Shown here piece after piece: positions 1,346-35,307 of a stretch of 64,000 bases of DNA. The notes beneath the pieces are model-generated. The model did not search any database. It was not told the origin of the DNA and saw nothing but the letters and a program-made list of their open reading frames with translations. Position numbers and translations under genes: made by a program. The DNA comes from a virus (taxonomy: Duplodnaviria > Caudoviricetes). The stretch spans positions 1 to 64,000 of IMG/VR virus record IMGVR_UViG_3300030330_005745; one strand, 5' to 3'. The number at the start of each line of letters is the position of its first letter. Within the stretch, counting starts at the first letter, position 1.

Positions 1346-4300
1346 ATGGCCTACATTGGACAGCAACCGGTAGTCGGTCGTTATATCCTCCTGGATCAAA
1401 TTTCAGGAGGATTTAATGGGACAACCAGTGGGTTCACGATGTCCACCGCTGGAGGTCAGCAAGGCGTAACGCCTGGGTTGGCTCAAAATGTCTTGCTGTC
1501 CTTGGGCGGTGTCATCCAACATCCTGGTACTGACTACACCATATCTGGCTCTGGCCTTACCTTTACAACACCACCAGCATCCGGTACAACTTTCTTCGCC
1601 ACGGTCTTGGGCGATGCACAGTCTGTTGGTACGCCTAGTGATGGCACCGTAACCCCTGCATCTATTGCCGAGGGATTTGATTTTTCGTTCCCGAACATGA
1701 CCGTTACGGGAGCATTGACTGTTAGTGGTTTAACGACAACGAGCGGCCTAACGGTTACTGGAGACGCAACCGTTCATGGCTTAACTGTTGGCCGTGGTCT
1801 TGGATCTGTTGCGACGAACACGGTCCTGGGCAACAACGCACTAGACGCAAACACCACGGGCAACAACAACACCGCTATTGGTGACGAAGCTCTGTCGGCT
1901 TGCACAGAGGGCTTTAGAAATACCGCAGTTGGCGCGAGCACGTTGGTTCTTCTCACCACGGGAGACAACAACGTTGCTATTGGTGCAGACGCACTTGAGG
2001 CAACTACTACGGGAAATGACAACGTAGCGGTTGGTTTTGACGCGCTTACTTTAAACACAACAGGCAATAACAATACTGCTGTTGGAGATTCTGCTTTAGA
2101 ATCTGCAACTACCGCATCTAATAACGCAGCATTAGGTGCAGATGCCCTTAAAGCCAATACAACTGGCACGTCTAACGTTGCTGTTGGCTATCAGGCTATT
2201 GATGCAAATACAACCGGTGATGCAAACACTGCGGTCGGTAGATCCGCGCTGACTAGCAACACCACTGCTAATAATAACGTTGCTGTAGGTAAACATGCTC
2301 TGTTGGTTAACAGCACTGGCACGTCTAACGTTGCTGTTGGTACAGATGCCCTTGATGCCAATACAACTGCCTCAAACAATGTTGCTGTTGGTCAATCAGC
2401 ACTAACAAATAACACAACTGGTGCTGAGAACACAGCGGTAGGTTTCCAAGCCTTAGAAAAGAACACGACTGCTAACAACAACATTGCCGTTGGTTATCAA
2501 GCTCTAGAAGAAACCACTACTGGCACGTCTAACGTTGCTGTTGGCTATCAGGCTATTGATGCAGGCACAACTGCTTCAAACAATGTTGCTGTTGGTCAAT
2601 CAGCACTAGGAGCTATCTCCACGAATGGCAACTGTGTCGCTGTCGGTCATCAGGCTCTGTTGAACACTACCGCCGGAAACCTAACCGCCGTCGGCTATCA
2701 AGCCTTAAGGATGAATACCAGTGGTACCAATAATGTTGCCCTTGGTCTTCAGGCGCTAAACCTTAATACCAGTGGCAATAACAACACTGCTGTTGGATAC
2801 CAAGCTTTAGATGCTAATACAACTGGAGATGCCAACACCGCAATGGGTCTTAACGCCCTTGGTGCCACCACCACTGGTGATAATAACGTAGCTGTTGGAT
2901 CTGGGGCTTTAGATGTAAACACTACCGGTTCTAGCAATGTTGCTATTGGGCAGAATACTGCTGGCGCCATAACCACTGGCATCCGAAATGTTGCCATTGG
3001 TCAATCAGCTTTAGCAGGAAATACAACTCAATCTCAGAATGTTGCGATTGGGCATGATGCTTTAAATTCTGCTACCGCTAGTAACAATACAGCCGTTGGC
3101 TACAAAAGTTTAGCAGCTAACACCACTGGCACGGAAAACGTAGCTGTTGGCTCACTTGCCCTTGACGCAAATACAGATGGTGGTAACAACACTGCCGTTG
3201 GCAGTCAAGCTTTAGGAAACAATACTGGCGGTGGAAACACAGCAGTTGGCCGTGCTGCATTAAACGCTAATACAAGTGCTGATAATAATACAGCTGTTGG
3301 TTTTAACGCATTGCTCGATAACACCACAGGTGAAAGAAATACAGCTGTTGGTTGTCGTGCTCTTGACGGAAATACCAATCAGGCTGACAACACTGCTGTT
3401 GGTTTCAATTCACTATCTGCTCTCACCTCAGGCAACAGTTGCACTGCTGTTGGATCACAAGCTCTTGAAAATTGTACTAGCGGGTCTGACAACACTGCTG
3501 TTGGTCAAAAGGCACTCGAAGCAAACACCAGCGGTGGTTACAACACCGCAGTGGGGCGTGAAACTCTGATAGCAAACACTACTGGCGATGGAAATACTGC
3601 GGTTGGCGGACTTGCGCTCGACGCAAATACTACGGCCGACGGCAATACTGCAATGGGTTGGGCAGCCCTAAGTGCTAACACTACTGGCAGTCAAAACGTA
3701 GCTGTTGGATATCAGGCTTTAGAGGCAAACACTATAGCTGGTGATAATACTGCTATTGGGTACGGTGCCCTTCAAGACAATACAACTGGCAGTAGTAACA
3801 CTGCCTGTGGACACCGTGCGCTTGCTCGAAATACCACTGGTACCTTCAACGTTGCTGTTGGACGGATTGCGCTAGATAACGTTACCACTGGCTCGCAAAA
3901 CATTGCCGTGGGTTACAACGCTGGCGGCTCAATTACCACAGGAAATGAGAACGTTTGCATCGGTCAAGATACAGGCGATAGAATCACAACTGGCGATCGA
4001 AATGTACTCATTGGCGACGACGCTGATGTTGATGTTTCTGGCAGAGATCGCGCTTGTGCTCTTGGTCAGGGCGTATCGACCTTTGCCACTGATTCCACGA
4101 CCCGGATTCTCGGTGATAACGGTGTTTACAACACAGGCAACACCTCCAATTGGAGTACAACCTCTGATCGTCGTCTGAAGAAGAACATTGTTGATTGCAC
4201 GATTGGTCTTGACACAATCAAGCAAATTGTCGTGCGCAACTTTGAATACAGGACCGCATCGGAAATCACAGATGCAGAACTGCAAAATAATCTCGACATT

Positions 4301-4504
4301 TACACGATTCCTAAAACGGGTGTTCAGGTTGGTGTTATCGCGCAGGAGCTTGAGGCTGTAATTCCAACAGCTGTCGCAACAGACGACAATGGCGTCAAGC
4401 AAGTTCAGCAGGACGAAGTGTTCTGGCACATGCTTACTGCCATCAAGGATCTTGCTGCAGAAAATGACGCACTCAAGGCTAGACTTGACGCAGGTGGACT
4501 CTGA
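1346..4504 (+). CDS. Long tail fibre / receptor-binding protein with many 14-aa repeats and C-terminal S74 domain
   Basis: 1052 aa; cyanophage-type N-terminus MAYIGQQP; repeated NxAVGxxAL; SDRRLKKNI and GVIAQELE at the C-terminus. Confidence 0.92.
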   Translation: MAYIGQQPVVGRYILLDQISGGFNGTTSGFTMSTAGGQQGVTPGLAQNVLLSLGGVIQHPGTDYTISGSGLTFTTPPASGTTFFATVLGDAQSVGTPSDGTVTPASIAEGFDFSFPNMTVTGALTVSGLTTTSGLTVTGDATVHGLTVGRGLGSVATNTVLGNNALDANTTGNNNTAIGDEALSACTEGFRNTAVGASTLVLLTTGDNNVAIGADALEATTTGNDNVAVGFDALTLNTTGNNNTAVGDSALESATTASNNAALGADALKANTTGTSNVAVGYQAIDANTTGDANTAVGRSALTSNTTANNNVAVGKHALLVNSTGTSNVAVGTDALDANTTASNNVAVGQSALTNNTTGAENTAVGFQALEKNTTANNNIAVGYQALEETTTGTSNVAVGYQAIDAGTTASNNVAVGQSALGAISTNGNCVAVGHQALLNTTAGNLTAVGYQALRMNTSGTNNVALGLQALNLNTSGNNNTAVGYQALDANTTGDANTAMGLNALGATTTGDNNVAVGSGALDVNTTGSSNVAIGQNTAGAITTGIRNVAIGQSALAGNTTQSQNVAIGHDALNSATASNNTAVGYKSLAANTTGTENVAVGSLALDANTDGGNNTAVGSQALGNNTGGGNTAVGRAALNANTSADNNTAVGFNALLDNTTGERNTAVGCRALDGNTNQADNTAVGFNSLSALTSGNSCTAVGSQALENCTSGSDNTAVGQKALEANTSGGYNTAVGRETLIANTTGDGNTAVGGLALDANTTADGNTAMGWAALSANTTGSQNVAVGYQALEANTIAGDNTAIGYGALQDNTTGSSNTACGHRALARNTTGTFNVAVGRIALDNVTTGSQNIAVGYNAGGSITTGNENVCIGQDTGDRITTGDRNVLIGDDADVDVSGRDRACALGQGVSTFATDSTTRILGDNGVYNTGNTSNWSTTSDRRLKKNIVDCTIGLDTIKQIVVRNFEYRTASEITDAELQNNLDIYTIPKTGVQVGVIAQELEAVIPTAVATDDNGVKQVQQDEVFWHMLTAIKDLAAENDALKARLDAGGL
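2162..2608 (+). repeat. Near-exact internal DNA repeats in the fibre gene
   Basis: 45-nt exact repeat at 2162-2206 and 2519-2563 (first 26 nt also at 2315-2340); 42-nt repeat with 1 mismatch at 2363-2404 and 2567-2608. Confidence 0.9.
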
Positions 4505-10213: not shown

Positions 10214-11485
10214 TTAGCTTACCTCAGCCAGCTTCTTTTTCGTGCGTTTTGTTTTTTTCTTTTTCCTCTTCGATACCGTTTCCAGTTCCACGCCGTGATC
10301 GACCTCCTGTAGGACATCCTCAAAAATCCCACCAAATTGCGACGCGACTGTCTCCCACGCAAATTGCGTATCCGTAGCTCTCTGATAACAGAGTTCCGCA
10401 ACCGCCTCACGTTTACCTGGGCTTTCGTAAAGTTCCGTAAGGAGTTCAGCCAGGTGGTCCCCCGACGGGCACGGCATTTCTCGGGCATAGTTCGTGTCTA
10501 CATCAACGTGATCGCATCTGATCAGCTTGCCATAACCTTCAAAGATTTCTTTGCAAGATGTGTGGTTCGGGACGATTTGGGCGACCTTACATGCCGCATG
10601 TTCAAAGTTGACCAGGCCCCAGCCCTCACCCTTGCAGGTATTTACGCCTACGTCACAGGCGTTATAGATGCAGTTCAGCATGTCCACCTCGACGTTAGGC
10701 GGCTGATCCCCCTGGGCAGTACGGATGATTCGGCCATTTGGATCGAGGCCCTGCTTCTTCATTTCCCGTGCGAACACCGGCATGATGTCCCAGCCTTGGT
10801 CCTTGCCGCCCATGTGTAAATACAGCTGAGCGTCCGGTTTGTCTTTGGCAAATTTGGCAAAACCTTCGATTGTGATGTCGATACGCTTGCGGAACTGGTT
10901 CCGGTTACCGTTAAAAACAATGAAAATATCAGGATCTAGACCCAGTCTCTTCCGGGCTTCCTTCTTATCCATCGGATAGAACTGATCTGGCGTCATGCCA
11001 TGAGGAATCACTGCAACAGGCTGGGTGATACCACCGGCAATAAATTCGTGTGCGCCGAATTCGGTGTAGGAAATGACGGCATCCCACTTGTTGGCTGTGT
11101 CGGACAGTCCACCGATCCAGTTGTAGGAGTCCATGGGGGCATAGCCCACGAACTTAAATTTCTTCTGCTCGTGCAGGTCAGCAATCTGTTGGTATTGCTG
11201 GTTGATAATCCAGATGTCGTTGATGGTGAAGACGATGTCGGGCTTCTCTCGCTCTACGATCTCCCGAATCCGTTGCACGCCAAAGGGTTCCGTCTGGTAC
11301 CGGTTGGACGACGGGAACATTTTGTACCGGTCTTGTAGCGGTGTTGGGTCACCCCACCAGTTATGACCGAGGACACAGATTTCGAACTTATCGTCAAGAT
11401 GCTTGAGTACATTCTCAGTGACACGGGCAAACCCGGTCATGGCGACAATATCCCCACACCACAAAAGCTTTGGTTTCTTACTCAT
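10214..11485 (-). CDS. Glycosyltransferase, GT-B fold (GT4-like)
   Basis: TGFARV, IPHG, NRNQFRKRID and EGWGLVNFEHAAC (ExxGxxxxE) motifs. Confidence 0.88.
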   Translation of the reverse strand: MSKKPKLLWCGDIVAMTGFARVTENVLKHLDDKFEICVLGHNWWGDPTPLQDRYKMFPSSNRYQTEPFGVQRIREIVEREKPDIVFTINDIWIINQQYQQIADLHEQKKFKFVGYAPMDSYNWIGGLSDTANKWDAVISYTEFGAHEFIAGGITQPVAVIPHGMTPDQFYPMDKKEARKRLGLDPDIFIVFNGNRNQFRKRIDITIEGFAKFAKDKPDAQLYLHMGGKDQGWDIMPVFAREMKKQGLDPNGRIIRTAQGDQPPNVEVDMLNCIYNACDVGVNTCKGEGWGLVNFEHAACKVAQIVPNHTSCKEIFEGYGKLIRCDHVDVDTNYAREMPCPSGDHLAELLTELYESPGKREAVAELCYQRATDTQFAWETVASQFGGIFEDVLQEVDHGVELETVSKRKKKKTKRTKKKLAEVS

Positions 11486-11509: not shown

Positions 11510-11869
11510 CTATACACAGTTTGAAGGAGTTATCGACCTTACAAGTTCTTTCTCCTCTACATTTTCAGCGGCAAGTCTATTTTTTAAATACTGTGCAGCT
11601 GCGTGAGTATCAGTTTCTTCTCCGCAGGTATAAAGATCGATAGCGCAGTAGCCGATCTCAGGCCAGGTGTGGATTGAAGCGTGGGATTCAGCAAGGAGTG
11701 CCAAGACTGTCACACCTTGTGGTTCGAATTTATTGCTGATGATCCGCAAAACGTTAGCTTTTGCCATGCGTAATGCGGATTCCAGTGCCTGCACCAGTAG
11801 TTGGCGGTCATCCAGCACAATTTTGCTGCATCCGTACATGTCCAGAATCAGGTGCCGACCGTCGCTCAT
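11510..11869 (-). CDS. speD: S-adenosylmethionine decarboxylase proenzyme
   Basis: GRHLILDMYGC, LAE-SHASIHTWPE self-cleavage site, DLYTCG. Confidence 0.95.
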   Translation of the reverse strand: MSDGRHLILDMYGCSKIVLDDRQLLVQALESALRMAKANVLRIISNKFEPQGVTVLALLAESHASIHTWPEIGYCAIDLYTCGEETDTHAAAQYLKNRLAAENVEEKELVRSITPSNCV

Positions 11870-14794: not shown

Positions 14795-15649
14795 TTAGAT
14801 CAAGTCGGGGTCGTACACATTGCAGTTTTCAATTTGCTTGTAGTATTCCTCGACGATTTTGTACCAATCCTCCCGCAGGATGTCCAAGAACCTCCGCGAG
14901 ATCTTGAAAATCTGAGTACGGGCAGGCGTTGAGACCAAGATGGCAGCCTGCTGAACCTTCATGTCCAGGGTCTGCTCGATGGCGATGTCGTACGCAGCCA
15001 GTTGCTTACAGGTTTTTTTGAACTTCATGTGGCCGCCCAACAGGTCACGCCATTCTGGTGACCCCTTTTCCAAGTCTTTCGGCCAGCGTCGGCTGTAGGG
15101 TTTCACGCTGGTTTTCAAATCAGCAAGCGTGAGTTTGCCATTGGCAACAGCAATGATGTCAGGCGCACCGGCCCAGGCTCTGCCCTCGCTGTCACTACCC
15201 CAAACCCGGGCGACTTCATCAGCACCCATCGTGAAGTCAAACTTATCTAGTACAGGGGATTCAGCCCAGAGAACTTCTTCGAATTGATCCAGGATTGGCG
15301 GCATGCCTGCCCAGAAATCCTTGTATTCATCAGCGATCTCAGGGTTTTTATTCCCTTTGAGGTAGCACTCCATCCCGTAGTGAATGGCGGTACCACGCTC
15401 GGCAGCCTTCTCTTTTACACCTGGGTTGTTTTTAGACCACATCTCCAGCTTCCGTTTGTTTGCTTCGGATGCTGTCTCACCGATGATGGTTGTCACTGAC
15501 GGAGCAGGGCCAGTGGGCAGAGGCGTAGTGTAGTGCCGTTTGCCGTTAAGGGATATTCGTGCGGCGGTCTTATTCAGACCACGCATACGAGTTTGTTTCT
15601 CCTCCTCGGATAGATTCCAGGGATCGTTGATATCTACCTGTTCAATCAT
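14795..15649 (-). CDS. PD-(D/E)XK exonuclease
   Basis: PSVTTI, ERGTAIH, AGAPD, ADLKTS and QLAAY motifs. Confidence 0.88.
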   Translation of the reverse strand: MIEQVDINDPWNLSEEEKQTRMRGLNKTAARISLNGKRHYTTPLPTGPAPSVTTIIGETASEANKRKLEMWSKNNPGVKEKAAERGTAIHYGMECYLKGNKNPEIADEYKDFWAGMPPILDQFEEVLWAESPVLDKFDFTMGADEVARVWGSDSEGRAWAGAPDIIAVANGKLTLADLKTSVKPYSRRWPKDLEKGSPEWRDLLGGHMKFKKTCKQLAAYDIAIEQTLDMKVQQAAILVSTPARTQIFKISRRFLDILREDWYKIVEEYYKQIENCNVYDPDLI

Positions 15650-15979: not shown

Positions 15980-16825
15980 GTGACCAAGACGATTGCATTT
16001 CTTACCTTATGGCGTGATAACGAGAAGATTTTAGATCGTTCTTTGTCTCAACTTGAGACTATGGAAGACGAGCTAATCCCCAAGGGGTACCGTTTTACCT
16101 ACGCTTTTCTTGAGAACGATTCGAAAGATGAGACTGCAATGAGACTGTACAAGTGGTTGCGTGAGCGGCGCGGCTTCTTGATCTCAGAGCAAATCGATGC
16201 ACCCAAGTGGGGAAGCGTTGCATTAACTGAACGTACCCGATGGCTTGCCCGATATCGCAACGTATGTTTAGCGGCGTTGGATTTCTGGAAGTATGACTAC
16301 CTTGTTGTGGCCGATAGTGATGTTCACTTCAAGCCAGATCTATTGACACAGATGGTTGATCATCTTGATCAGAATCCTGACTGGGGAATGATCACACCGA
16401 ATACTGTGCAGAATGTTGCGGATCACGTTGGTGAAACTGATCTGCCCTCCTACTTCGACAGCTGGACGTTAATTGATAAACAGAAAATGCAAGGCATGAC
16501 CTTTGCTGCCAATCCGTTTTTGTCTTCGCATGATCGTGAGGACTGGGAGAAAGGTCACCCGATCTCTGTGTATAGCGCCTTCGGTTCAATCGCCATGATC
16601 CGTGGTGAAATTCCTCAGGAATATGAGGTGCATTGGAGTGCTGAGGTTGGTTGTGAACACACGGGTTTGTGTGAAGACATCACCAAGATTGGCTACGAAA
16701 TTATTGTTGACCCCAAGTTACATGCAGAAATTATTCACGAGGAGCCGGTGATTCCCGACCCCGCCGTGGTAAAAATGCATCAGGATCGCCTTAAGTTAGC
16801 TGAGGCCTCCACTTTGCTCGAGTAA
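15980..16825 (+). CDS. Glycosyltransferase, GT-A fold (CAP59/Anp1-like)
   Basis: FLENDSKDET, LARYRN, DxD motif ADSDV, SAFGSIAM, CEH. Confidence 0.8.
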   Translation: MTKTIAFLTLWRDNEKILDRSLSQLETMEDELIPKGYRFTYAFLENDSKDETAMRLYKWLRERRGFLISEQIDAPKWGSVALTERTRWLARYRNVCLAALDFWKYDYLVVADSDVHFKPDLLTQMVDHLDQNPDWGMITPNTVQNVADHVGETDLPSYFDSWTLIDKQKMQGMTFAANPFLSSHDREDWEKGHPISVYSAFGSIAMIRGEIPQEYEVHWSAEVGCEHTGLCEDITKIGYEIIVDPKLHAEIIHEEPVIPDPAVVKMHQDRLKLAEASTLLE

Positions 16826-17836
16826 ATCGTGGTCGATCATCTCCTGGACGAGAGTTTCGAAGGTGTACTTTGGCAACCAACGCAGTTGTTTCAGTGCTTT
16901 TCGAGGATCTCCCAGGAGAGTTTCAACTTCAGCAGGACGATAATACTGAGGACTTACTCGGATGATTGTTTGTCCTAGTGTCCTGCTGTAACCAATTTCA
17001 TGCTCACGCTCCCCTTGCCATTCAAGGTTTAAGTTGAGTCGATCCGCTGCAACTTCGCAGAATTGTCGAACGCTGTGCTGCATACCCGTGGCGATCACAT
17101 AATCTTCGGGCTTTTCTTGCTGCATCATGCGCCACATGGCATCCACATAGTCGGAAGCATGGCCCCAATCCCGCTTGGCTTCTAGGTTTCCAAGTTCAAT
17201 AAACTCTTTTTTCCCTTTTAAAATTTGCGCCAGACCCTGTGTGATCTTCTTCGTCACGAAATTTTCGCCACGAATCGGGCTTTCATGGTTGAAGAGGATG
17301 CCGTTACAACCAAATAAGTCGTAGCTTTCCCGGTAGTTGACGGTCAGCCAGTAGGAAAAAAGTTTGGCAACACCGTAGGGACTGCGTGGATAGAAGGGTG
17401 TCGCCTCATTTTGGGGGCATTCTTGTACCTTGCCGAACATTTCGGAGGTCGAAGCCTGGTAAAAACGGGGTGCATCACTACCCATTGACCGGCATGCCTC
17501 AAGGACATTCATCGGTCCAAGTGCATTTGCAGTCGCGGTACTGACTGGGGATTGAAAACTGATCCCAACATGGCTTTGCGCTGCCAAGTTGTAGACCTCA
17601 TCTGGTACAAAGTCGTGAACAATCCGTGTCAGTGACGGGGCGTCCGTAAGATCTGAGTAGAAAAGTTCAATGCTTTCAGGGATTTTGCCGCCAAAAACCC
17701 ACTCTAATTTTTTTAGTTGTCCAGGAACAGACGTACGTCTCAGAATACCGGCGACGGTATAACCAATGTCGTAAAGCCTTTTTGCAAGATATGCGCCATC
17801 TTGTCCAGTGATTCCTGTGATTAAAGCTCGCGTCAT
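16796..17836 (-). CDS. gmd: GDP-mannose 4,6-dehydratase
   Basis: ITGITGQDGAYL, YNLAAQSHV, YQASTSEMFG, SPYGVAKL, RDWGHA; start placed at MTRALIT. Confidence 0.97.
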   Translation of the reverse strand: MTRALITGITGQDGAYLAKRLYDIGYTVAGILRRTSVPGQLKKLEWVFGGKIPESIELFYSDLTDAPSLTRIVHDFVPDEVYNLAAQSHVGISFQSPVSTATANALGPMNVLEACRSMGSDAPRFYQASTSEMFGKVQECPQNEATPFYPRSPYGVAKLFSYWLTVNYRESYDLFGCNGILFNHESPIRGENFVTKKITQGLAQILKGKKEFIELGNLEAKRDWGHASDYVDAMWRMMQQEKPEDYVIATGMQHSVRQFCEVAADRLNLNLEWQGEREHEIGYSRTLGQTIIRVSPQYYRPAEVETLLGDPRKALKQLRWLPKYTFETLVQEMIDHDLLEQSGGLS

Positions 17837-17923
17837 TGGCCCCCTATAGCGATATTCTGTTGGCACATAATGCATACCAACTCACTTTTACAGCTAAAGT
17901 ATAGCCGTAAGTGATAACGAGAC

Positions 17924-19096
17924 ATGAGATCTTTCAAGTGGCCTTTACAGCGCAATACGATTGGGCTGCAAGAGCGTCTATCACAGATTAAATTTTGGGC
18001 AACTGCTGATCGTTTTACGAACGGACCTGAGGTACGTGCGTTTGAAAAAGAGTGGTCAGATTGGCAAGGAAGTGAATACTCTCTTTATGTAGGCAATGGA
18101 TCTGTTGCAAACTTTCTGCTGTTAGATGCGGTCAAAGAAAAATTTTTCCCCAAACACGAGAAGCTAACGATCTTTGCGCCTGCAATTAACTGGGCGACTA
18201 ATATCTCGACGTTCTTTCAGCAACGTCATAACGTTTATTTCTACGACATTGACTACACCAGCTACAGCCCGACCATTGAGTCAGTCACTGAATTAGCAGA
18301 GAAAGGTATTAAGCCTGACATTATTTACCTGACGCATGTCTTGGGCATCTCGAATGATATGCAACGTGTGAAAGATCTATGGCCTGGGGTCATGATCATC
18401 GAAGACTGCTGTGAGTCCCATGGTGCTGTAGATCCTAGAAGTGGGGCCAAAGTTGGAACGACAGGCATTGGTTCTACTTTTTCGTTCTACTTCGGCCACC
18501 ACATGAACACGGTCGAAGGCGGAATGATCAGTGTCAATGACCGTGATTTGTATAACTTGATGCGTGCCAAGAGGTCCCACGGTCTATCCCGTGAGATGTT
18601 GCCGCATCAACGCAACCTTGTTGAGCATGAATACAGCGATATCGACCCATCATTCTTGTTCCCCACTAAGGGTTACAACTTCCGCAACACTGAAAGCGGT
18701 GCAGTTCTTGGTCGAGTACAGCTCAAAAAGCTCGATACATGGAACAAAAAAAGATCTGAAAACTACTATGCCTTCTGTATGCAGATGGCACCACAGCATT
18801 GGATTGAGCATGTAGCAACACCTGAGGGTAACTCTGCGATGACTTTGCCGTTCCATTGTTGTACGGAACGACAGGCATCTCATCTGAAAAAAGAATTGAA
18901 GAAGCGTGGTATTGAAACCCGGCCTTTTTTGGTCGGCAACCTTTTGCTGCAACCGTTCATGAGTGGCTATACATCTCCGATTAAGTTGCCAAATACAGAA
19001 AGAATGCATACACATTCGTTCTACATTGGTAATAATCAGTTTGTTACACCCGCCGATATTCGGGCATTGGCGCAGGAGTTGAAATGCGTATTCTGA
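17924..19096 (+). CDS. colD: PLP-dependent GDP-4-keto-6-deoxymannose 3-dehydratase-like enzyme (DegT superfamily, His-type)
   Basis: EDCCESHGA, STFSFYFGHHMNTVEGG (His where aminotransferases have Lys), RSHG, GYNFR, RPFLVGN; divergent from gmd. Confidence 0.8.
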   Translation: MRSFKWPLQRNTIGLQERLSQIKFWATADRFTNGPEVRAFEKEWSDWQGSEYSLYVGNGSVANFLLLDAVKEKFFPKHEKLTIFAPAINWATNISTFFQQRHNVYFYDIDYTSYSPTIESVTELAEKGIKPDIIYLTHVLGISNDMQRVKDLWPGVMIIEDCCESHGAVDPRSGAKVGTTGIGSTFSFYFGHHMNTVEGGMISVNDRDLYNLMRAKRSHGLSREMLPHQRNLVEHEYSDIDPSFLFPTKGYNFRNTESGAVLGRVQLKKLDTWNKKRSENYYAFCMQMAPQHWIEHVATPEGNSAMTLPFHCCTERQASHLKKELKKRGIETRPFLVGNLLLQPFMSGYTSPIKLPNTERMHTHSFYIGNNQFVTPADIRALAQELKCVF

Positions 19097-19809
19097 TTTG
19101 TAGCATCATCCGCAACCGTCGTCCCTATCTTTTTAATTGGAAGGACTTGATCCTCTGCTTGGCAGATGAGAACCCTGATGTTCTGTTTGATCTGTCTGTT
19201 TACGAGAATGATTCAACCGATGGCACTGCTGAGTACCTGCACAGTATTCTTCCTGAACTGCAGAAGGAACTTTTCCAAGTAAGCATCACGTGTGAGAAGA
19301 ACGATAAGCCGTACTTCCCCTCGGTGAAAGATGAAGATCGTGTAACGCTTCTGGCCGAAGCACGTAATCGGACTCTGGATCAGATGGATCTGGATGTGTA
19401 CGACAAGATTGTTTTCATTGAACCAGACGTTGATTATGACCCGGATCTCATCAGCGAATTGTTTTATATGGCGTCGGACATTTGCTCACCTTACAGTCTG
19501 CAGCCTGAGAACTACCCAAGTTTCCCTTGGATTTATGACTGCTGGGCAACCAGGGTCAAGATGACGGATGACGAATTCACCGGCCCCAATTTATATGAGA
19601 TGCCTCCTTGCCTAGAGGTTGATTCAACCTTTAATTGTTTCTGTGTGTATAAGGCTAAACCGTTCCAAGAAGGTGCCCGATTTTCAGGAATTAATCCTGC
19701 AACCGGCACCTGGGACTGCGACACCACCAATATCTGTGCTGAGTTTGCGCAACGGGGATACGATCAAATCCATTTATACCGTATAGCTCTAACTCATAAT
19801 GCCAACTGA
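19084..19809 (+). CDS. Glycosyltransferase, GT-A fold, paralogue of 15980
   Basis: VYENDSTDGT, LAEARNRTL, EPDV, YDCWA, STFNCFCVY. Confidence 0.78.
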   Translation: MRILICSIIRNRRPYLFNWKDLILCLADENPDVLFDLSVYENDSTDGTAEYLHSILPELQKELFQVSITCEKNDKPYFPSVKDEDRVTLLAEARNRTLDQMDLDVYDKIVFIEPDVDYDPDLISELFYMASDICSPYSLQPENYPSFPWIYDCWATRVKMTDDEFTGPNLYEMPPCLEVDSTFNCFCVYKAKPFQEGARFSGINPATGTWDCDTTNICAEFAQRGYDQIHLYRIALTHNAN

Positions 19810-20022: not shown

Positions 20023-20796
20023 ATGAGCACTCTTGTTGCCAACCTGCCGCCTGTCAAAGTTTGGGTTCGACGTGAGTATCTACGTGATCTTCGTGACGGC
20101 CATGGAGAATATACACCTGGCTATTGGGTAACTTGCAAGTCACTATCTGGACGTGCGCTTTATTTTGAAACGTATCTAACTGAGTATGGTGCGCTATATG
20201 ACAAGCTTCCTATCAGTGCTTTTCTTGCTTGGGATTCTGATCATCCCGACGAGCCCGTGGCTCCTACTCCTGATTTGCCGCTGACTGATCTTCAGTTCTG
20301 GAATGGATTTGACACCGGTCTTGTGGTGGTCGAAAAGAATCTGATCTTCAACATGGAGTTTGAAGTGATGACGCGGGATGCAGGTATCCAACGCGGATCT
20401 TATCTGTTCACGATCGACAATTATCATCCGCACCGCAATGAACCTGACTTTTACTTTGCGGAGATGCCCGATGAGCATAAGTCCCACAACATTGTGGAGC
20501 TAGAGAACGGTCAGATTGGTGCCTATCCAAACAATAGGTGCCGCATGGTTGATCCTTCGCTTACCAACCATGACCTGAAAACGCCTGACTTCAAAGTTTC
20601 GACGCGCTATTTTAATGTAGAGCATGCTCCCAAGTGGGGCAGGCTTGGTGAGACAGATGATTATTTCTGGAAGACACCAAATGAAACTACAACACCAAAA
20701 GAGGAGCTTGTTACTGACACTGCGTGCAAGATTGAGTTTGATGCTCTTGGCGCTGAGTTTTATAAATCAGCCCGGAATGAGCAAACCAACGCATAG
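20023..20796 (+). CDS. Conserved marine phage protein of unknown function (LVANLPPVKVWVR family)
   Basis: 257 aa, aromatic-rich; EHKSHN and GAYPNNR motifs. Confidence 0.8.
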   Translation: MSTLVANLPPVKVWVRREYLRDLRDGHGEYTPGYWVTCKSLSGRALYFETYLTEYGALYDKLPISAFLAWDSDHPDEPVAPTPDLPLTDLQFWNGFDTGLVVVEKNLIFNMEFEVMTRDAGIQRGSYLFTIDNYHPHRNEPDFYFAEMPDEHKSHNIVELENGQIGAYPNNRCRMVDPSLTNHDLKTPDFKVSTRYFNVEHAPKWGRLGETDDYFWKTPNETTTPKEELVTDTACKIEFDALGAEFYKSARNEQTNA

Positions 20797-21095: not shown

Positions 21096-21354
21096 CCAAA
21101 TACGGTTAGCTTTTTATAAACGGAAGCAGGAATGTTGCCGTTGTGGATGTAGCGATCACCGTGTCCTTGAGTTTCATCATGTCAATGAGAAGAGCTACAA
21201 CATTGCCGACATGGCATCTCGGGGATACGCCTGGTCCAGGATCGAAGACGAATTAAAAAAATGCGAGACAGTCTGTGCAAACTGCCATCGCATTCTTCAT
21301 CATGAACAGAAGTTACTCAGCGAAGACTTGCCTTCACCATCCACGCAGCCTTGA
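21070..21354 (+). CDS. HNH endonuclease
   Basis: CxxCG...LEFHH...CETVCANCHRILH. Confidence 0.85.
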   Translation: MSCRRRKNSQIRLAFYKRKQECCRCGCSDHRVLEFHHVNEKSYNIADMASRGYAWSRIEDELKKCETVCANCHRILHHEQKLLSEDLPSPSTQP

Positions 21355-21802
21355 AGGCATCGCCCGTTAGTTCTGCCAAGAAGTGAGCGATATCAATGGC
21401 ACCGATCTTGGTGGCAACAGGCTCAAGCTTTTTACACTTCATGCCAAGCGTTTCAAGATTCTTGGAGTACACATAGAGTTGTGTGCCACTTTGATAGCTA
21501 TCAACATGATCAAACTTGGAGGCAGCACTCCGTAATCCTTTGCCGCACATTGGCATCAGGTAATCCATGCTGCGGATGTACTCAGACATCTTGTCGAACT
21601 GTTCAAGATGTGCTTCGTATTGATCCTTAAGGAAAGCATGTACTGCCAGGAAGTTTGTCCCCTCATAGTTGAGGTGGATCAAATGTGATTGCGTCTCCAG
21701 TTCCTTCAAGTATGCAGAGATTTCAATGCATTGCTTGATGAATTTACCGATTGCAGATTTTGAATCCTGCGGTTCGGGCTCTTGTCGTGTTGGGGTTTCC
21801 AT
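21317..21802 (-). CDS. dps: Dps/ferritin-like DNA-protection protein
   Basis: SHLIHLNYEGTNFLAVHAFLKDQYE...DKMSEYIR ferroxidase pattern. Confidence 0.85.
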   Translation of the reverse strand: METPTRQEPEPQDSKSAIGKFIKQCIEISAYLKELETQSHLIHLNYEGTNFLAVHAFLKDQYEAHLEQFDKMSEYIRSMDYLMPMCGKGLRSAASKFDHVDSYQSGTQLYVYSKNLETLGMKCKKLEPVATKIGAIDIAHFLAELTGDAFKAAWMVKASLR

Positions 21803-22560: not shown

Positions 22561-24750
22561 CTATGCAGATTCTAGTTCTGCAATACGTACTTCAAGAGCT
22601 GTGTTCTTGGCAGACAGTTCCTGCACCGCCCTGACTAAGACAGGAATGAGTTTTCCATAAGAAGCCTCAAGTCGATCTGGGTTGTTATCCATAACCAGCT
22701 TCAGATAGTCGGTATCAGTGTCTTTTTGCAGCTGTTGCAGGTCTTGGGCAATGAAGCCAGCCTCATAAGTTCCGTCTTTGCTGTTTCCGTCGCGTGTTTT
22801 CCATTCAAACTTGACAGGCTTCAAGCGTGAAACAAAATCAAGCCCTTCACCCAGTTCGGCGATATTGATTTTGTCGCGTCCGTCAGAAAGGCTGGTAATT
22901 GATGTCTGATTGCAACGAAGCGTGTTCAGGCTTGAATTGCCTAAAGTCATTTCATTATTTACAGACGAGCTGCTAGGAGATGCACTTTTACCGATGAGAG
23001 TATTGTTGTTTCCAGAAAGAGAATCGCTGCTGCTTGTGAGGATGCTAGGACCAATCAGAACATTGTTGCTACCACTAATGTTATGGGCGGTTCTGTAGCC
23101 CATGCTGATGTTATTGCTGCCGCTTGCATACCTTTGTGAACCTTCTCCGAGTGCAATATTGTATTCGCCGGTTGTTGTGTCTTTTAGACAATTTTCACCC
23201 AAACCAATGTTGTAAGACCCCGTGGTAACTTTTTCTAAAACTTCCCTTCCTAGCGCGATATTGCTCCTTCCTGTTGTCACGCTGTCCAAAGGCTTTGTAC
23301 CAATGGCAACGTTAAAGGTGCCAGTCATGCCGGCTGAACTGCCTCCACATGCTTGTTCTCCGATACCAACATTGCCGCCGCCACTTGTGAGGTCTTTACA
23401 TGCCTGCTTGCCTATAGCCACATTTATGTCTCCGCTGCTTATGTCTTGCATCGCCTGCTCGCCGATCGCAATGTTGCCATCTGCTTTATCTGAACCGGTT
23501 TCAATCGGGCTTACAAAAGCATTTGTACCACCAGATATATTTTTGTTTGCGTCTTCCGTCAGCAAACCACCGCCGCCACCTGCATCAGCCAGTGTGATAT
23601 TGCCGTTGCTTGAATTAAAAGTCAGAACTTGACCGTCAGACGCTCCAGATTGCAGGCCAGGAATCCGAAGGCTGGTAACGTTTGCATCCCCTAAAGTGAT
23701 TTCATTAGAAACCGTATTGCTACTTGGTTGAGCGTTATGTCCAATAGCGGTGCTGTTGCTGCCCGTTGTAAATGTGGTGCCAGCTTCGTGGCCCAAAAAT
23801 GTGTTATTATTCCCAGTTGTTACATCCTCTCCAGCCTGCTCACCAACAATAACGTTTGAATGGCCAGTAGTTGATGTCGTTAATGCCTTTCTGCCGATGA
23901 CAACATTGTTATAGCCTGATGTTAAAGCATCGGCTGCGAAGCTACCGATAACGGTGTTACCGCTCGCGTCTTCAAGTTGATAGCCAGCTCTATATCCAAT
24001 CAGGACGTTTTCATCACCATCAACTTCATAGCCCGCTTGATAGCCAATAACCACACACCTACTGAAATTGTCCTGTTGATATTTAGCTTCATGACCGACG
24101 ACGACGTTAGCATTACCCGGGCCTCTTCCTGCGTATGTACCGATACAAACACTATTTGTAACGCTATTGGTAGTACTTGCGGCACTAACACCGATAGCAA
24201 TGTTGCTATTAGTTGTTGTGAAGTTTCTGCCAGCGTGAGTACCCAAGCATACGTTGTAATAACCTGTTGTTATATTTTCAGCTGTCTCAAATCCAAGAGC
24301 AGTGTTATCGAATCCGGTCGTTAAATCCTTGATGGCAGTATGACCAACTGCCGTATTTCTGTTGCCGGTCGTGAGTGCATTAAGTGCGTTATATCCAAGA
24401 GCAGTTGCCTGGTTAGTAGTGCCATCATCGTTGACAAGAGCACCAGTTCCAAGGCCGATCGATTCGCCACTGTCGTAGGTGACAGCATCAGACAAGTCGT
24501 TGATCGCGGATGCACCACCACCACCAGCATCTGCAAAAGAAAAGTTACCACTTCCATCTGTAACTAATGCTTGACCATTAGTACCGTCTGCTGCTGGTAA
24601 GGTCCAGATTCTATTTGTGCTGACTGTTGCAGCTGCTTTAAAGCCTACGTAGTTGCTGCCATCGCTATCTCCAAAACGCAACTCTCCTTGCTCATCAAGG
24701 ACCAGAGGTTGAGTCAGATCAGCAATAAGTTGTGCCTTTGTTTGCGACAT
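22561..24750 (-). CDS. Third tail fibre with repeat shaft and S74 chaperone
   Basis: 729 aa; NxxIGxxA repeats; LSDGRDKINI, AGFIAQDLQ, LVRAVQEL. Confidence 0.9.
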   Translation of the reverse strand: MSQTKAQLIADLTQPLVLDEQGELRFGDSDGSNYVGFKAAATVSTNRIWTLPAADGTNGQALVTDGSGNFSFADAGGGGASAINDLSDAVTYDSGESIGLGTGALVNDDGTTNQATALGYNALNALTTGNRNTAVGHTAIKDLTTGFDNTALGFETAENITTGYYNVCLGTHAGRNFTTTNSNIAIGVSAASTTNSVTNSVCIGTYAGRGPGNANVVVGHEAKYQQDNFSRCVVIGYQAGYEVDGDENVLIGYRAGYQLEDASGNTVIGSFAADALTSGYNNVVIGRKALTTSTTGHSNVIVGEQAGEDVTTGNNNTFLGHEAGTTFTTGSNSTAIGHNAQPSSNTVSNEITLGDANVTSLRIPGLQSGASDGQVLTFNSSNGNITLADAGGGGGLLTEDANKNISGGTNAFVSPIETGSDKADGNIAIGEQAMQDISSGDINVAIGKQACKDLTSGGGNVGIGEQACGGSSAGMTGTFNVAIGTKPLDSVTTGRSNIALGREVLEKVTTGSYNIGLGENCLKDTTTGEYNIALGEGSQRYASGSNNISMGYRTAHNISGSNNVLIGPSILTSSSDSLSGNNNTLIGKSASPSSSSVNNEMTLGNSSLNTLRCNQTSITSLSDGRDKINIAELGEGLDFVSRLKPVKFEWKTRDGNSKDGTYEAGFIAQDLQQLQKDTDTDYLKLVMDNNPDRLEASYGKLIPVLVRAVQELSAKNTALEVRIAELESA

Positions 24751-34322: not shown

Positions 34323-34972
34323 TTCTTGAATGCAACCTCTGCAATGGTGGGGAGCTTTTCAGTAAAGATAGTCTTGCAGCCTTCAGCGATATCCTTATGT
34401 TCTTTCTGTGTGCCGTTGCCTGTACGTAATTGGATGTAGTGAATCCAACTGCGGAGAGTCCCGCACATGTATAAACGAGTAGGTGTTGCCAATGGAAGAA
34501 TTGCCCTGGCACATTCTTTAGCTACACCGTCGCTAATCATTTGGCTATAAAGATCCTCAGCCATACTGAAGACGTTTGCAATCTTGTCTTCATAGCAAGC
34601 ACGTTGCCAGTCTGACAAGTTGTCAACGCTGTTCTGCCTGTTCTTGAGATCTTGTGTTCTTAGTTCAGGCATTTCTGCACCACCAAGTTCTTGGGTGCTG
34701 GCGTAGCGTTGTGAAAATTCCTGGAATGTGAAGGACCTATGCCTCAGCAACTGAGGTGAAATTGCTCTGGTTGTGTTGATCTCAATGCACATTGATGCCA
34801 TTTCAAATGGTGACCAATGCTCGTGATCAATGAGATAACGAATCAAACGTGGAGCTGTCAAGTTGTTGTCTTGATTGGAAGGGTTGCTAACCCTTGCCAT
34901 CATCGTGATCAGTTGCTCTGCCAGGGGTGTGACCCAGACAAGCTTGGTGAGCGGGTGCAGATTTTGATTCAT
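34319..34972 (-). CDS. thyX: Flavin-dependent thymidylate synthase
   Basis: HWSPFE, RHRSFTFQEFSQRY, ARAILP, RSWIHYIQLR. Confidence 0.96.
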   Translation of the reverse strand: MNQNLHPLTKLVWVTPLAEQLITMMARVSNPSNQDNNLTAPRLIRYLIDHEHWSPFEMASMCIEINTTRAISPQLLRHRSFTFQEFSQRYASTQELGGAEMPELRTQDLKNRQNSVDNLSDWQRACYEDKIANVFSMAEDLYSQMISDGVAKECARAILPLATPTRLYMCGTLRSWIHYIQLRTGNGTQKEHKDIAEGCKTIFTEKLPTIAEVAFKK

Positions 34973-35307
34973 TAGGCAGCACGATTGTAGTCGTCATCAA
35001 GACGTTCAATGTCGGCCTCAGACAGGTGAGAGCCCCGTTGAACCTCGATGATGCCAAGTCCCTCTGGGCCTGCTTCTGCACGATGTACGGCATTCTCAGG
35101 CACAAAGAGAGTGGTCCCTGGAGCAGCTGGAGTAACAGTGTTACCGCAGGTGAGTTTACCGGATCCTTGAACGATTACCCAATTCTCAGAGCGATGCCAA
35201 TGGCGTTGCAGACTGATGCGTTGGTTCGGATGAATCCAAATCTTTTTAACTAAAAAACCTTCGCCTGTTTTTATGGTTTCAAAGTATCCCCAAGGACGTT
35301 TTTCCAT
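34972..35307 (-). CDS. Cupin, type II mannose-6-phosphate isomerase C-terminal domain
   Basis: RPWGYF, VKKIWIHPNQRISLQRHWHRSENW, IEVQRG, DIERLDDDY. Confidence 0.88.
   Translation of the reverse strand: MEKRPWGYFETIKTGEGFLVKKIWIHPNQRISLQRHWHRSENWVIVQGSGKLTCGNTVTPAAPGTTLFVPENAVHRAEAGPEGLGIIEVQRGSHLSEADIERLDDDYNRAA

Follow-up and report, generated by a model that had tools for sequence, protein, structure and literature searches.

A reductase-less Gmd-ColD-type cassette with CAP59-like transferases in an S-EIV1-like cyanophage: a candidate pathway to a 3,6-dideoxy sugar

The window analysed here is a 64-kb stretch forming the first part of the 82,948-bp IMG/VR virus record IMGVR_UViG_3300030330_005745 (CheckV 100% complete), the genome of a lake cyanophage of the S-EIV1-like lineage. 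Positions 15980-19809 hold four genes which, in the reading that we favour with moderate confidence, make up an accessory glycan cassette: a GDP-mannose 4,6-dehydratase (Gmd) and a ColD-type 3-dehydratase would produce a dideoxy intermediate, which would be finished by a route other than ColC and moved by glycosyltransferases (GTs) of the GT-A fold. The two steps leading to GDP-4-keto-3,6-dideoxy-D-mannose are well supported, as predictions from family membership and gene linkage. Colitose synthesis ends with a step for which no enzyme is encoded anywhere in this genome, so the end product is probably something other than ordinary colitose.

The DegT-family enzyme and its partner Gmd

The initial annotation had described gmd as divergently paired with a DegT-family gene and bracketed by two paralogous GT-A genes. 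All four open reading frames (ORFs) were found where it had placed them, in the order GT-A, Gmd, DegT enzyme, GT-A:

15980..16825, + strand: GT-A 1, CAP59/GT21/GT2-like, 281 aa (CAP59_mtransfer 29.9 bits, cut-off 28.8)
16796..17875, - strand: Gmd, ORF of 359 aa (TIGR01472 458.8 bits, PF16363)
17924..19096, + strand: candidate ColD-type GDP-4-keto-6-deoxy-D-mannose 3-dehydratase, 390 aa, here called P0001 (PF01041, His192)
19084..19809, + strand: GT-A 2, CAP59/Anp1-like, 241 aa (CAP59 58.5 bits)

P0001 belongs to the DegT/DnrJ/EryC1 family (PF01041, 1.8e-50 over residues 18-385), and its translation at the pyridoxal phosphate site reads FSFYFGHHMNTVEGG, the first His of which is H192. In a 127-sequence alignment this residue falls in the same column as His188 of E. 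coli O55 ColD. The column is His in P0001, ColD, E1 and all 120 homologues, and it is the catalytic Lys in Per, ArnB and WecE. As references we used ColD, ColC and GT11 from E. coli O55:H7, Per, Fcl and Gmd from O157:H7, and an E1/RfbH protein from a gammaproteobacterial genome (540 bits against a cut-off of 423). ColD and E1/SpnQ both carry His for Lys, whereas a four-Cys [2Fe-2S] motif is present only in E1/SpnQ (PMC8987622). The E1 iron-sulphur (Fe-S) cysteines C249 and C251 fall in an insert that is missing from both P0001 and E. coli ColD, and E1 C262 aligns with P227 of P0001. The ColD active-site residues R219, F240, N248, R250, E329 and R331, on the other hand, are all kept in P0001.

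Similarity searches and phylogeny gave the same picture. With phmmer against the PDB sequences, P0001 matched E. coli O55 ColD best (all four entries; 140.8 bits, E 4.8e-40), ahead of E1 with 85 bits and perosamine synthase with 51 bits. P0001 scored 128.4 bits with the E1/RfbH equivalog model NF011936, which is below its threshold of 423. In a maximum-likelihood tree (IQ-TREE, rooted on the Lys-type enzymes) E1 separated from P0001 and E. coli ColD with an SH-aLRT of 91, and P0001 formed part of a large and mostly uncharacterised radiation that is sister to E. coli ColD. The proposal of the initial annotation that this enzyme, with its His for Lys and its lack of the E1 Fe-S insert, is ColD-like and not a perosamine synthase is thus borne out by alignment, phmmer and tree; comparison with ColD, PerA and E1 by profile models and phylogeny did not group it with the Lys-type aminotransferases. 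At the sequence level, membership tests place P0001 with ColD, and it would be expected to work in the same way.

An alternative is that P0001 is a perosamine-synthase-like sugar aminotransferase and that the cassette makes a GDP-amino sugar, as its Pfam membership and the public annotation of homologues as 'aminotransferase' would suggest. This is very improbable in view of the invariant His, of the perosamine synthase score set against that of ColD (51 versus 141 bits), and of the finding that wild-type ColD and E1 have no transaminase activity (PMC8987622). The 'aminotransferase' labels on these genes in phage records are misleading.

Gmd scored above the TIGR01472 equivalog cut-off of 415 bits, matched PF16363 with 2e-132, and is 56% identical to Gmd of Synechococcus phage S-CAM7. 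A Gmd gene adjoins the ColD homologue in most of the loci, among them more than 60 viral and many bacterial ones. The enzyme assignments behind the initially proposed order, Gmd followed by ColD to give GDP-4-keto-3,6-dideoxymannose, therefore stand at sequence level, and the product is the one predicted for these families.

With regard to gene arrangement, the 3' ends of GT-A 1 and gmd show a convergent overlap of 30 bp, and 48 bp separate the annotated start codons of the divergent gmd and DegT genes. All gmd homologues begin around residue 14 of the 359-aa ORF (13 codons later); judged from the sequence, the real start is probably at 17836, which would make the spacer about 87 bp instead of 48. 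The ColD and GT-A 2 ORFs overlap by 13 bp, which we read as translational coupling. A promoter and terminator scan found fewer promoter-like sites than in shuffled sequence and was uninformative on transcription of the divergent pair.

The missing reductase and the nature of the sugar

The absence of ColC/Fcl from the window, as stated in the initial annotation, was confirmed and extends to the whole genome, where gmd is the only gene of the PF01370 family. This genome also gave no match to adh_short (PF00106), aldo-keto reductase (PF00248) or Gfo/Idh/MocA (PF01408) families, and Pfam scans of 39 further ORFs showed no oxidoreductase. Seven further cassette-bearing relatives likewise have a single PF01370 gene, gmd, and all eight genomes are near-complete (96-100%, two of them having terminal repeats). 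Because gmd is the only extended short-chain dehydrogenase/reductase (SDR) in these eight genomes, ColC/Fcl is absent from the lineage and not merely beyond the window. Of the two sources initially suggested for the reductase, the host or DNA outside the window, the second can therefore be dismissed. The proposed survey of related genomes for linked fcl or colC points the same way: an Fcl-like gene was found on none of 62 S-EIV1-like contigs, which were sampled through the backbone gene orf284.

Neighbouring ORFs in Fcl-less loci were also clustered in search of a hidden reductase, and several of the resulting 'families' proved to be antisense shadow ORFs inside ColD or Gmd. The real shared neighbours were GT8-like genes, a cupin of the phosphomannose isomerase (PMI) type and a family of about 245 aa that lacks annotation. 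Directly beside ColD, Fcl-less viral loci (L150:10268-11002, L157:8790-9566, L160:11142-11882, L203:8605-9333 and L011:2450-3151) encode unannotated proteins of about 235-258 aa that have no Pfam match and are candidates for a novel transferase or for the missing finishing enzyme.

In the pathway that we propose, Gmd would oxidise and dehydrate host GDP-mannose to GDP-4-keto-6-deoxy-D-mannose. The ColD-type enzyme would then take off the 3-hydroxyl to give GDP-4-keto-3,6-dideoxy-D-mannose. Its cofactor in this reaction would be pyridoxamine phosphate (PMP), regenerated with glutamate; His192 would serve as acid/base, and neither an Fe-S cluster nor a reductase partner would be required. Because the phage has no ColC/Fcl or recognisable ketoreductase, this product would be finished by other means. 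Host Fcl would convert it to L-colitose; C4 reduction without inversion, by an NADPH-dependent reductase activity of Gmd itself or by another enzyme, would give a D-series 3,6-dideoxyhexose; or the keto-sugar might be transferred unchanged. A precedent for the second option is the GMD of chlorovirus PBCV-1, which also reduces its 4-keto intermediate and makes GDP-D-rhamnose (PMC5408694). One or two mannosyltransferase-like (CAP59/Mnn9) GT-A enzymes would finally move the sugar to an acceptor in the cytoplasm. This may be a structural protein of the phage or a host glycan linked to lipid; the virion proteins or LPS proposed in the initial annotation are likewise a matter of inference.

Both transferases are predicted to have a GT-A fold with a DXD-type metal site, of the CAP59 (PF11735)/Anp1-Mnn9 kind. 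The solved structures closest to both are COLGALT1 (GT25) and the GDP-mannose enzyme Mnn9 of yeast (GT62), the latter in its GDP-Mn-bound form. GT-A 2 is the core transferase, found in every S-EIV1-like cassette. It has a weak Anp1 match besides CAP59_mtransfer and an invariant E113-x-D115, and its AlphaFold2 (AF2) model (pLDDT 96.5) matched COLGALT1 with 8.8e-12 and Mnn9-GDP-Mn with 3.9e-11 in Foldseek, both with a TMq of 0.74. GT-A 1 is optional in relatives and missing from the 69%-identity subclade. Besides CAP59 it matches GT21 (29.5 bits), weakly but over threshold; its invariant motif is D112-S-D114, and its AF2 model (pLDDT 80) also had COLGALT1 and Mnn9 as top Foldseek matches. The two proteins are paralogous, if distantly so (26% identity, E 5e-11). 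A tblastn search of the whole genome with S-CAM7 GT11 gave no match, nor did S-CAM7 and E. coli O55 GT11 queries against related cassette loci. The GT4 gene at 10214-11485 (Pfam), which the initial annotation had listed alongside the cassette, is no evidence for the pathway: it is an S-EIV1 backbone gene, since Synechococcus phage S-EIVl has this GT4 and no cassette.

More than 577 IMG/VR stretches encode a relative of P0001. The distribution of Fcl and transferase genes was counted in the 69 viral loci with 3 kb or more of sequence to either side of ColD:

Fcl absent, CAP59-like GT-A present, GT11 absent: 31 loci
Fcl present, GT-A absent, GT11 present: 15 loci
Fcl present, GT-A absent, GT11 absent: 14 loci
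Fcl absent, GT-A absent, GT11 absent: 9 loci

Hence Fcl is paired with a CAP59-like GT-A in 0/69 loci and GT11 occurs without Fcl in 0/69, while 29 loci have Fcl without GT-A. The raw Fisher association is extreme, but it ignores relatedness. GT11 enzymes use GDP-L-fucose-type donors, which require the epimerase-reductase, and relatives of CAP59, Anp1 and Mnn9 use GDP-D-mannose, so the Fcl-less cassettes may transfer a D-configured derivative. With no Fcl and with this partition of transferases, the 'colitose-type' label of the initial annotation is unproven. Together, the transferase pattern and the lineage-wide absence of Fcl make a D-configured donor, rather than L-colitose, the most likely outcome, although it is only modestly favoured.

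The version of the pathway put forward in the initial annotation is that a host GDP-fucose synthase (Fcl/WcaG) epimerises and reduces the intermediate to GDP-L-colitose, which the two GT-A enzymes would then transfer. ColC is indeed an Fcl-family enzyme (the E. coli O55 protein is annotated 'GDP-L-fucose synthase family'), ColD is paired with an Fcl-like gene in many phage loci and, within a few kb, in most bacterial ones, and an Fcl homologue (E<=1e-30) that could complete colitose was present in 75 of the 151 cyanobacterial genomes sampled. The other half of these genomes lack one, however, which would make the cassette host-dependent, and no evidence was found of a housekeeping Fcl accepting a 3-deoxy substrate. 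Moreover, phages that encode Fcl never carry a CAP59-like GT-A and in 15 of 29 cases carry GT11, the fucosyl/colitosyl-transferase family, which is never seen in Fcl-less cassettes. On balance we regard synthesis of L-colitose through the host as unlikely. Less likely still is a purely metabolic diversion, in which Gmd and ColD drain GDP-mannose and GDP-4-keto-6-deoxymannose from host fucose, rhamnose and mannose glycans and the product is never used. The equally improbable outcome would be a stripped or altered surface receptor and 'lock-out' of superinfecting phages, as has been proposed for phage lipopolysaccharide genes (PMC5332604). A dead-end product would fit the absence of a reductase, but at least one GT-A gene, coupled to ColD by the 13-bp overlap, is part of every cassette core, and the co-occurring PMI cupin would raise the supply of mannose.

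Several observations weigh against the favoured reading of a cassette finished without ColC and using a D-configured donor. To the cyanobacterial Fcl homologues mentioned above should be added that GT-A changed only about four times on the ColD tree, which leaves three to four independent contrasts, too few for significance; we treat the GT-A/Fcl exclusivity as a suggestive lead only. The predicted fold of the transferases fixes neither donor nor acceptor, and their top structural match is a UDP-Gal enzyme. P0001 shares only 28% identity with E. coli ColD, itself a long branch at the base of the clade, and ColD Ser187 is Gly or Ala in the P0001 clade. A more specific form of the favoured reading, which we offer tentatively and would not expect to hold in full, is that mannosyltransferase-like GT-A enzymes put a GDP-linked D-sugar without a known GDP pathway on phage structural proteins. 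The donor would be either GDP-4-keto-3,6-dideoxy-D-mannose itself or a Gmd-reduced GDP-3,6-dideoxy-D-arabino-hexose (tyvelose) or its D-lyxo epimer. If true, the 'glycan island' of S-EIV1-like phages would diversify the chemistry of the virion surface. A role of the sugar in DNA glycosylation was set aside, as nothing connects the cassette with genes for DNA modification and the GT4-speD-primase unit belongs to the backbone.

A variable island and a co-varying cupin

The record carries the genes of a phage (terminase, major head protein, tail-fibre-like proteins, family A DNA polymerase and primase-helicase). Its sole close cultured relative is S-EIVl, with which it shares a 782-aa virion protein at 77.5% identity and synteny around GT4-speD-primase-orf284; at the cassette site, S-EIVl has small ORFs only. 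Megablast of the cassette region against phage records gave no match. The cassette thus occupies a variable island adjoining the primase module. The genes that delimit the island, and the cupin, are as follows:

14795..15649, - strand: orf284, backbone gene, 284 aa, no family, left island edge (66% identical in the cassette-less S-EIVl)
20023..20796, + strand: backbone gene, 257 aa, usually the right island edge (no Pfam match; S-EIVl homologue annotated PurM)
34972..35307, - strand: stand-alone PMI-type cupin, 111 aa (PF01050, 2e-28)

An orf284 homologue borders every island variant sampled. The content of the island among the 62 contigs was:

nothing recognisable: 17/62
Gmd-ColD-GT-A2: 15/62
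GT-A1-Gmd-ColD-GT-A2, as in this phage: 10/62
GT-A1 alone: 5/62
a different His-type DegT, motif FYPAHH: 15/62 (6 of them with a distant 4,6-dehydratase)

The core Gmd-ColD-GT-A2 occupies one and the same backbone site in cassettes whose ColD identities range from 58 to 98%. In two examples the FYPAHH variant stands alongside an RmlC-type epimerase, a second SDR and DUF4422/DXD transferases. Loci L212 (2398-7454) and L220 (4043-7467), both beside an orf284 homologue, encode DUF4422/DXD glycosyltransferases, an SDR fragment and a His-type DegT whose motif, SFYPAHHITT.EGG, is E1-like; in L212 an RmlC-type 3,5-epimerase (PF00908, 1e-60) and a 324-aa 4,6-dehydratase are present as well. It is evident that this hot spot, which adjoins the replication genes, has three or more interchangeable states: it may be empty, hold the 3-deoxy-sugar cassette based on GDP-mannose, or hold a cassette of the E1-like/RmlC-like type. 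Because the island alternates between these states, rare dideoxy sugars seem to be under recurrent selection in S-EIV1-like phages. These phages are a widespread lineage of picocyanobacterial viruses, and about 3% of the marine cyanophage reads in one survey belonged to the S-EIV1 genus (PMC5332604). Two short contigs, L042 and L043, that were binned in Steroidobacteraceae and Bacteroidota metagenome-assembled genomes carry an S-EIV1-like cassette (59-69% ColD identity) and are most likely mis-binned phage fragments.

The cupin at 34972-35307 resembles the C-terminal mannose-6-phosphate isomerase domain of ManC/CpsB and is 38% identical to the C-terminus of E. coli O157 CpsB. It is present in 6/7 cassette-bearing and 0/5 cassette-less S-EIV1-like genomes (Fisher p 0.015, uncorrected for relatedness), and a search of the whole S-EIVl record found no cupin. 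In other viruses the cupin lies beside ColD, either on its own or as a fusion with a cytidylyltransferase-like domain. Its link to the pathway, suggested in the initial annotation, is upheld by this co-occurrence across relatives; the cupin probably supplies precursor and would feed mannose-6-phosphate into the pathway. The fusions, of 253-255 aa (L163:6071-6832, L165:11161-11922 and L198:9233-10000), join a cytidylyltransferase-like nucleotidyltransferase domain to the PMI-type cupin directly beside ColD, and look like a miniature ManC with a different nucleotidyltransferase domain.

Some of the genes around the island deserve mention. The 257-aa gene at 20023-20796 (+) is 79% identical to the S-EIVl 'PurM', yet it has no Pfam or NCBIfam match, and the annotation looks doubtful. 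Two further neighbours are common to S-EIVl: a SpeD-type S-adenosylmethionine decarboxylase (11510-11869, - strand; TIGR03330, 1e-36) between primase and GT4, and a ferritin/Dps-like gene (21317-21802, - strand) just past the island. The window also encodes two large tail-fibre/spike-like proteins, of 1052 aa (1346-4504, + strand) and 729 aa (22561-24750, - strand), both of which match the same repeat-rich PHROG families 4636, 6002 and 23837. The 729-aa protein, encoded 2.7 kb past the cassette, would be an obvious candidate target for glycosylation.

Relation to known systems

The closest biochemical parallel is the GDP-L-colitose pathway of E. coli O55/O111 (Gmd, ColD/WbdK, ColC/WbdJ and GT11). 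Both have Gmd followed by a His-type, Fe-S-free DegT enzyme with the active-site residues kept. The phage cassette differs in having neither ColC nor GT11, in its CAP59/Mnn9-like GT-A enzymes and in its distant ColD, and it sits in an accessory island, whereas the E. coli genes sit in the O-antigen cluster. The E1/RfbH and E3 reductase system shares His for Lys and PMP-dependent C3 deoxygenation, but E1/RfbH has the [2Fe-2S] insert that P0001 is without, and needs E3. Chlorovirus PBCV-1 likewise encodes GDP-sugar enzymes (GMD/GMER) together with its own glycosyltransferases (PMC5408694). PBCV-1 is, however, a eukaryotic giant virus without a 3-dehydratase, and glycosylation of its capsid protein by the viral enzymes has been demonstrated, whereas virion proteins are a putative acceptor here.

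The nearest phage systems are those of Synechococcus phages S-CAM7 and ACG-2014f (gmd-fcl-colD-GT11). They too have a phage-borne Gmd and a ColD-like enzyme (41% identical) of the same virus-rich clade, and a PMI cupin is often near these cyanomyovirus cassettes. In contrast to the S-EIV1-like cassette, they encode an Fcl/ColC-type epimerase-reductase and GT11; the S-CAM7 record lists gmd, a 'GDP-L-fucose synthetase', a dehydrase and GT11 in a row. Phage genes of the colitose type are therefore not new, since the complete cassette is annotated piecemeal in GenBank cyanomyovirus records, although a literature search for colitose and phage found no paper reporting a phage pathway. What is new here is the reductase-less variant with CAP59-like transferases, the constant position that it occupies in an exchangeable island of S-EIV1-like phages, and the co-varying PMI cupin. 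This variant poses a clean question that can be addressed at the bench, namely whether a D-series or keto 3,6-dideoxy sugar is made from GDP-mannose and whether it ends up on virions or on the surface of the host.

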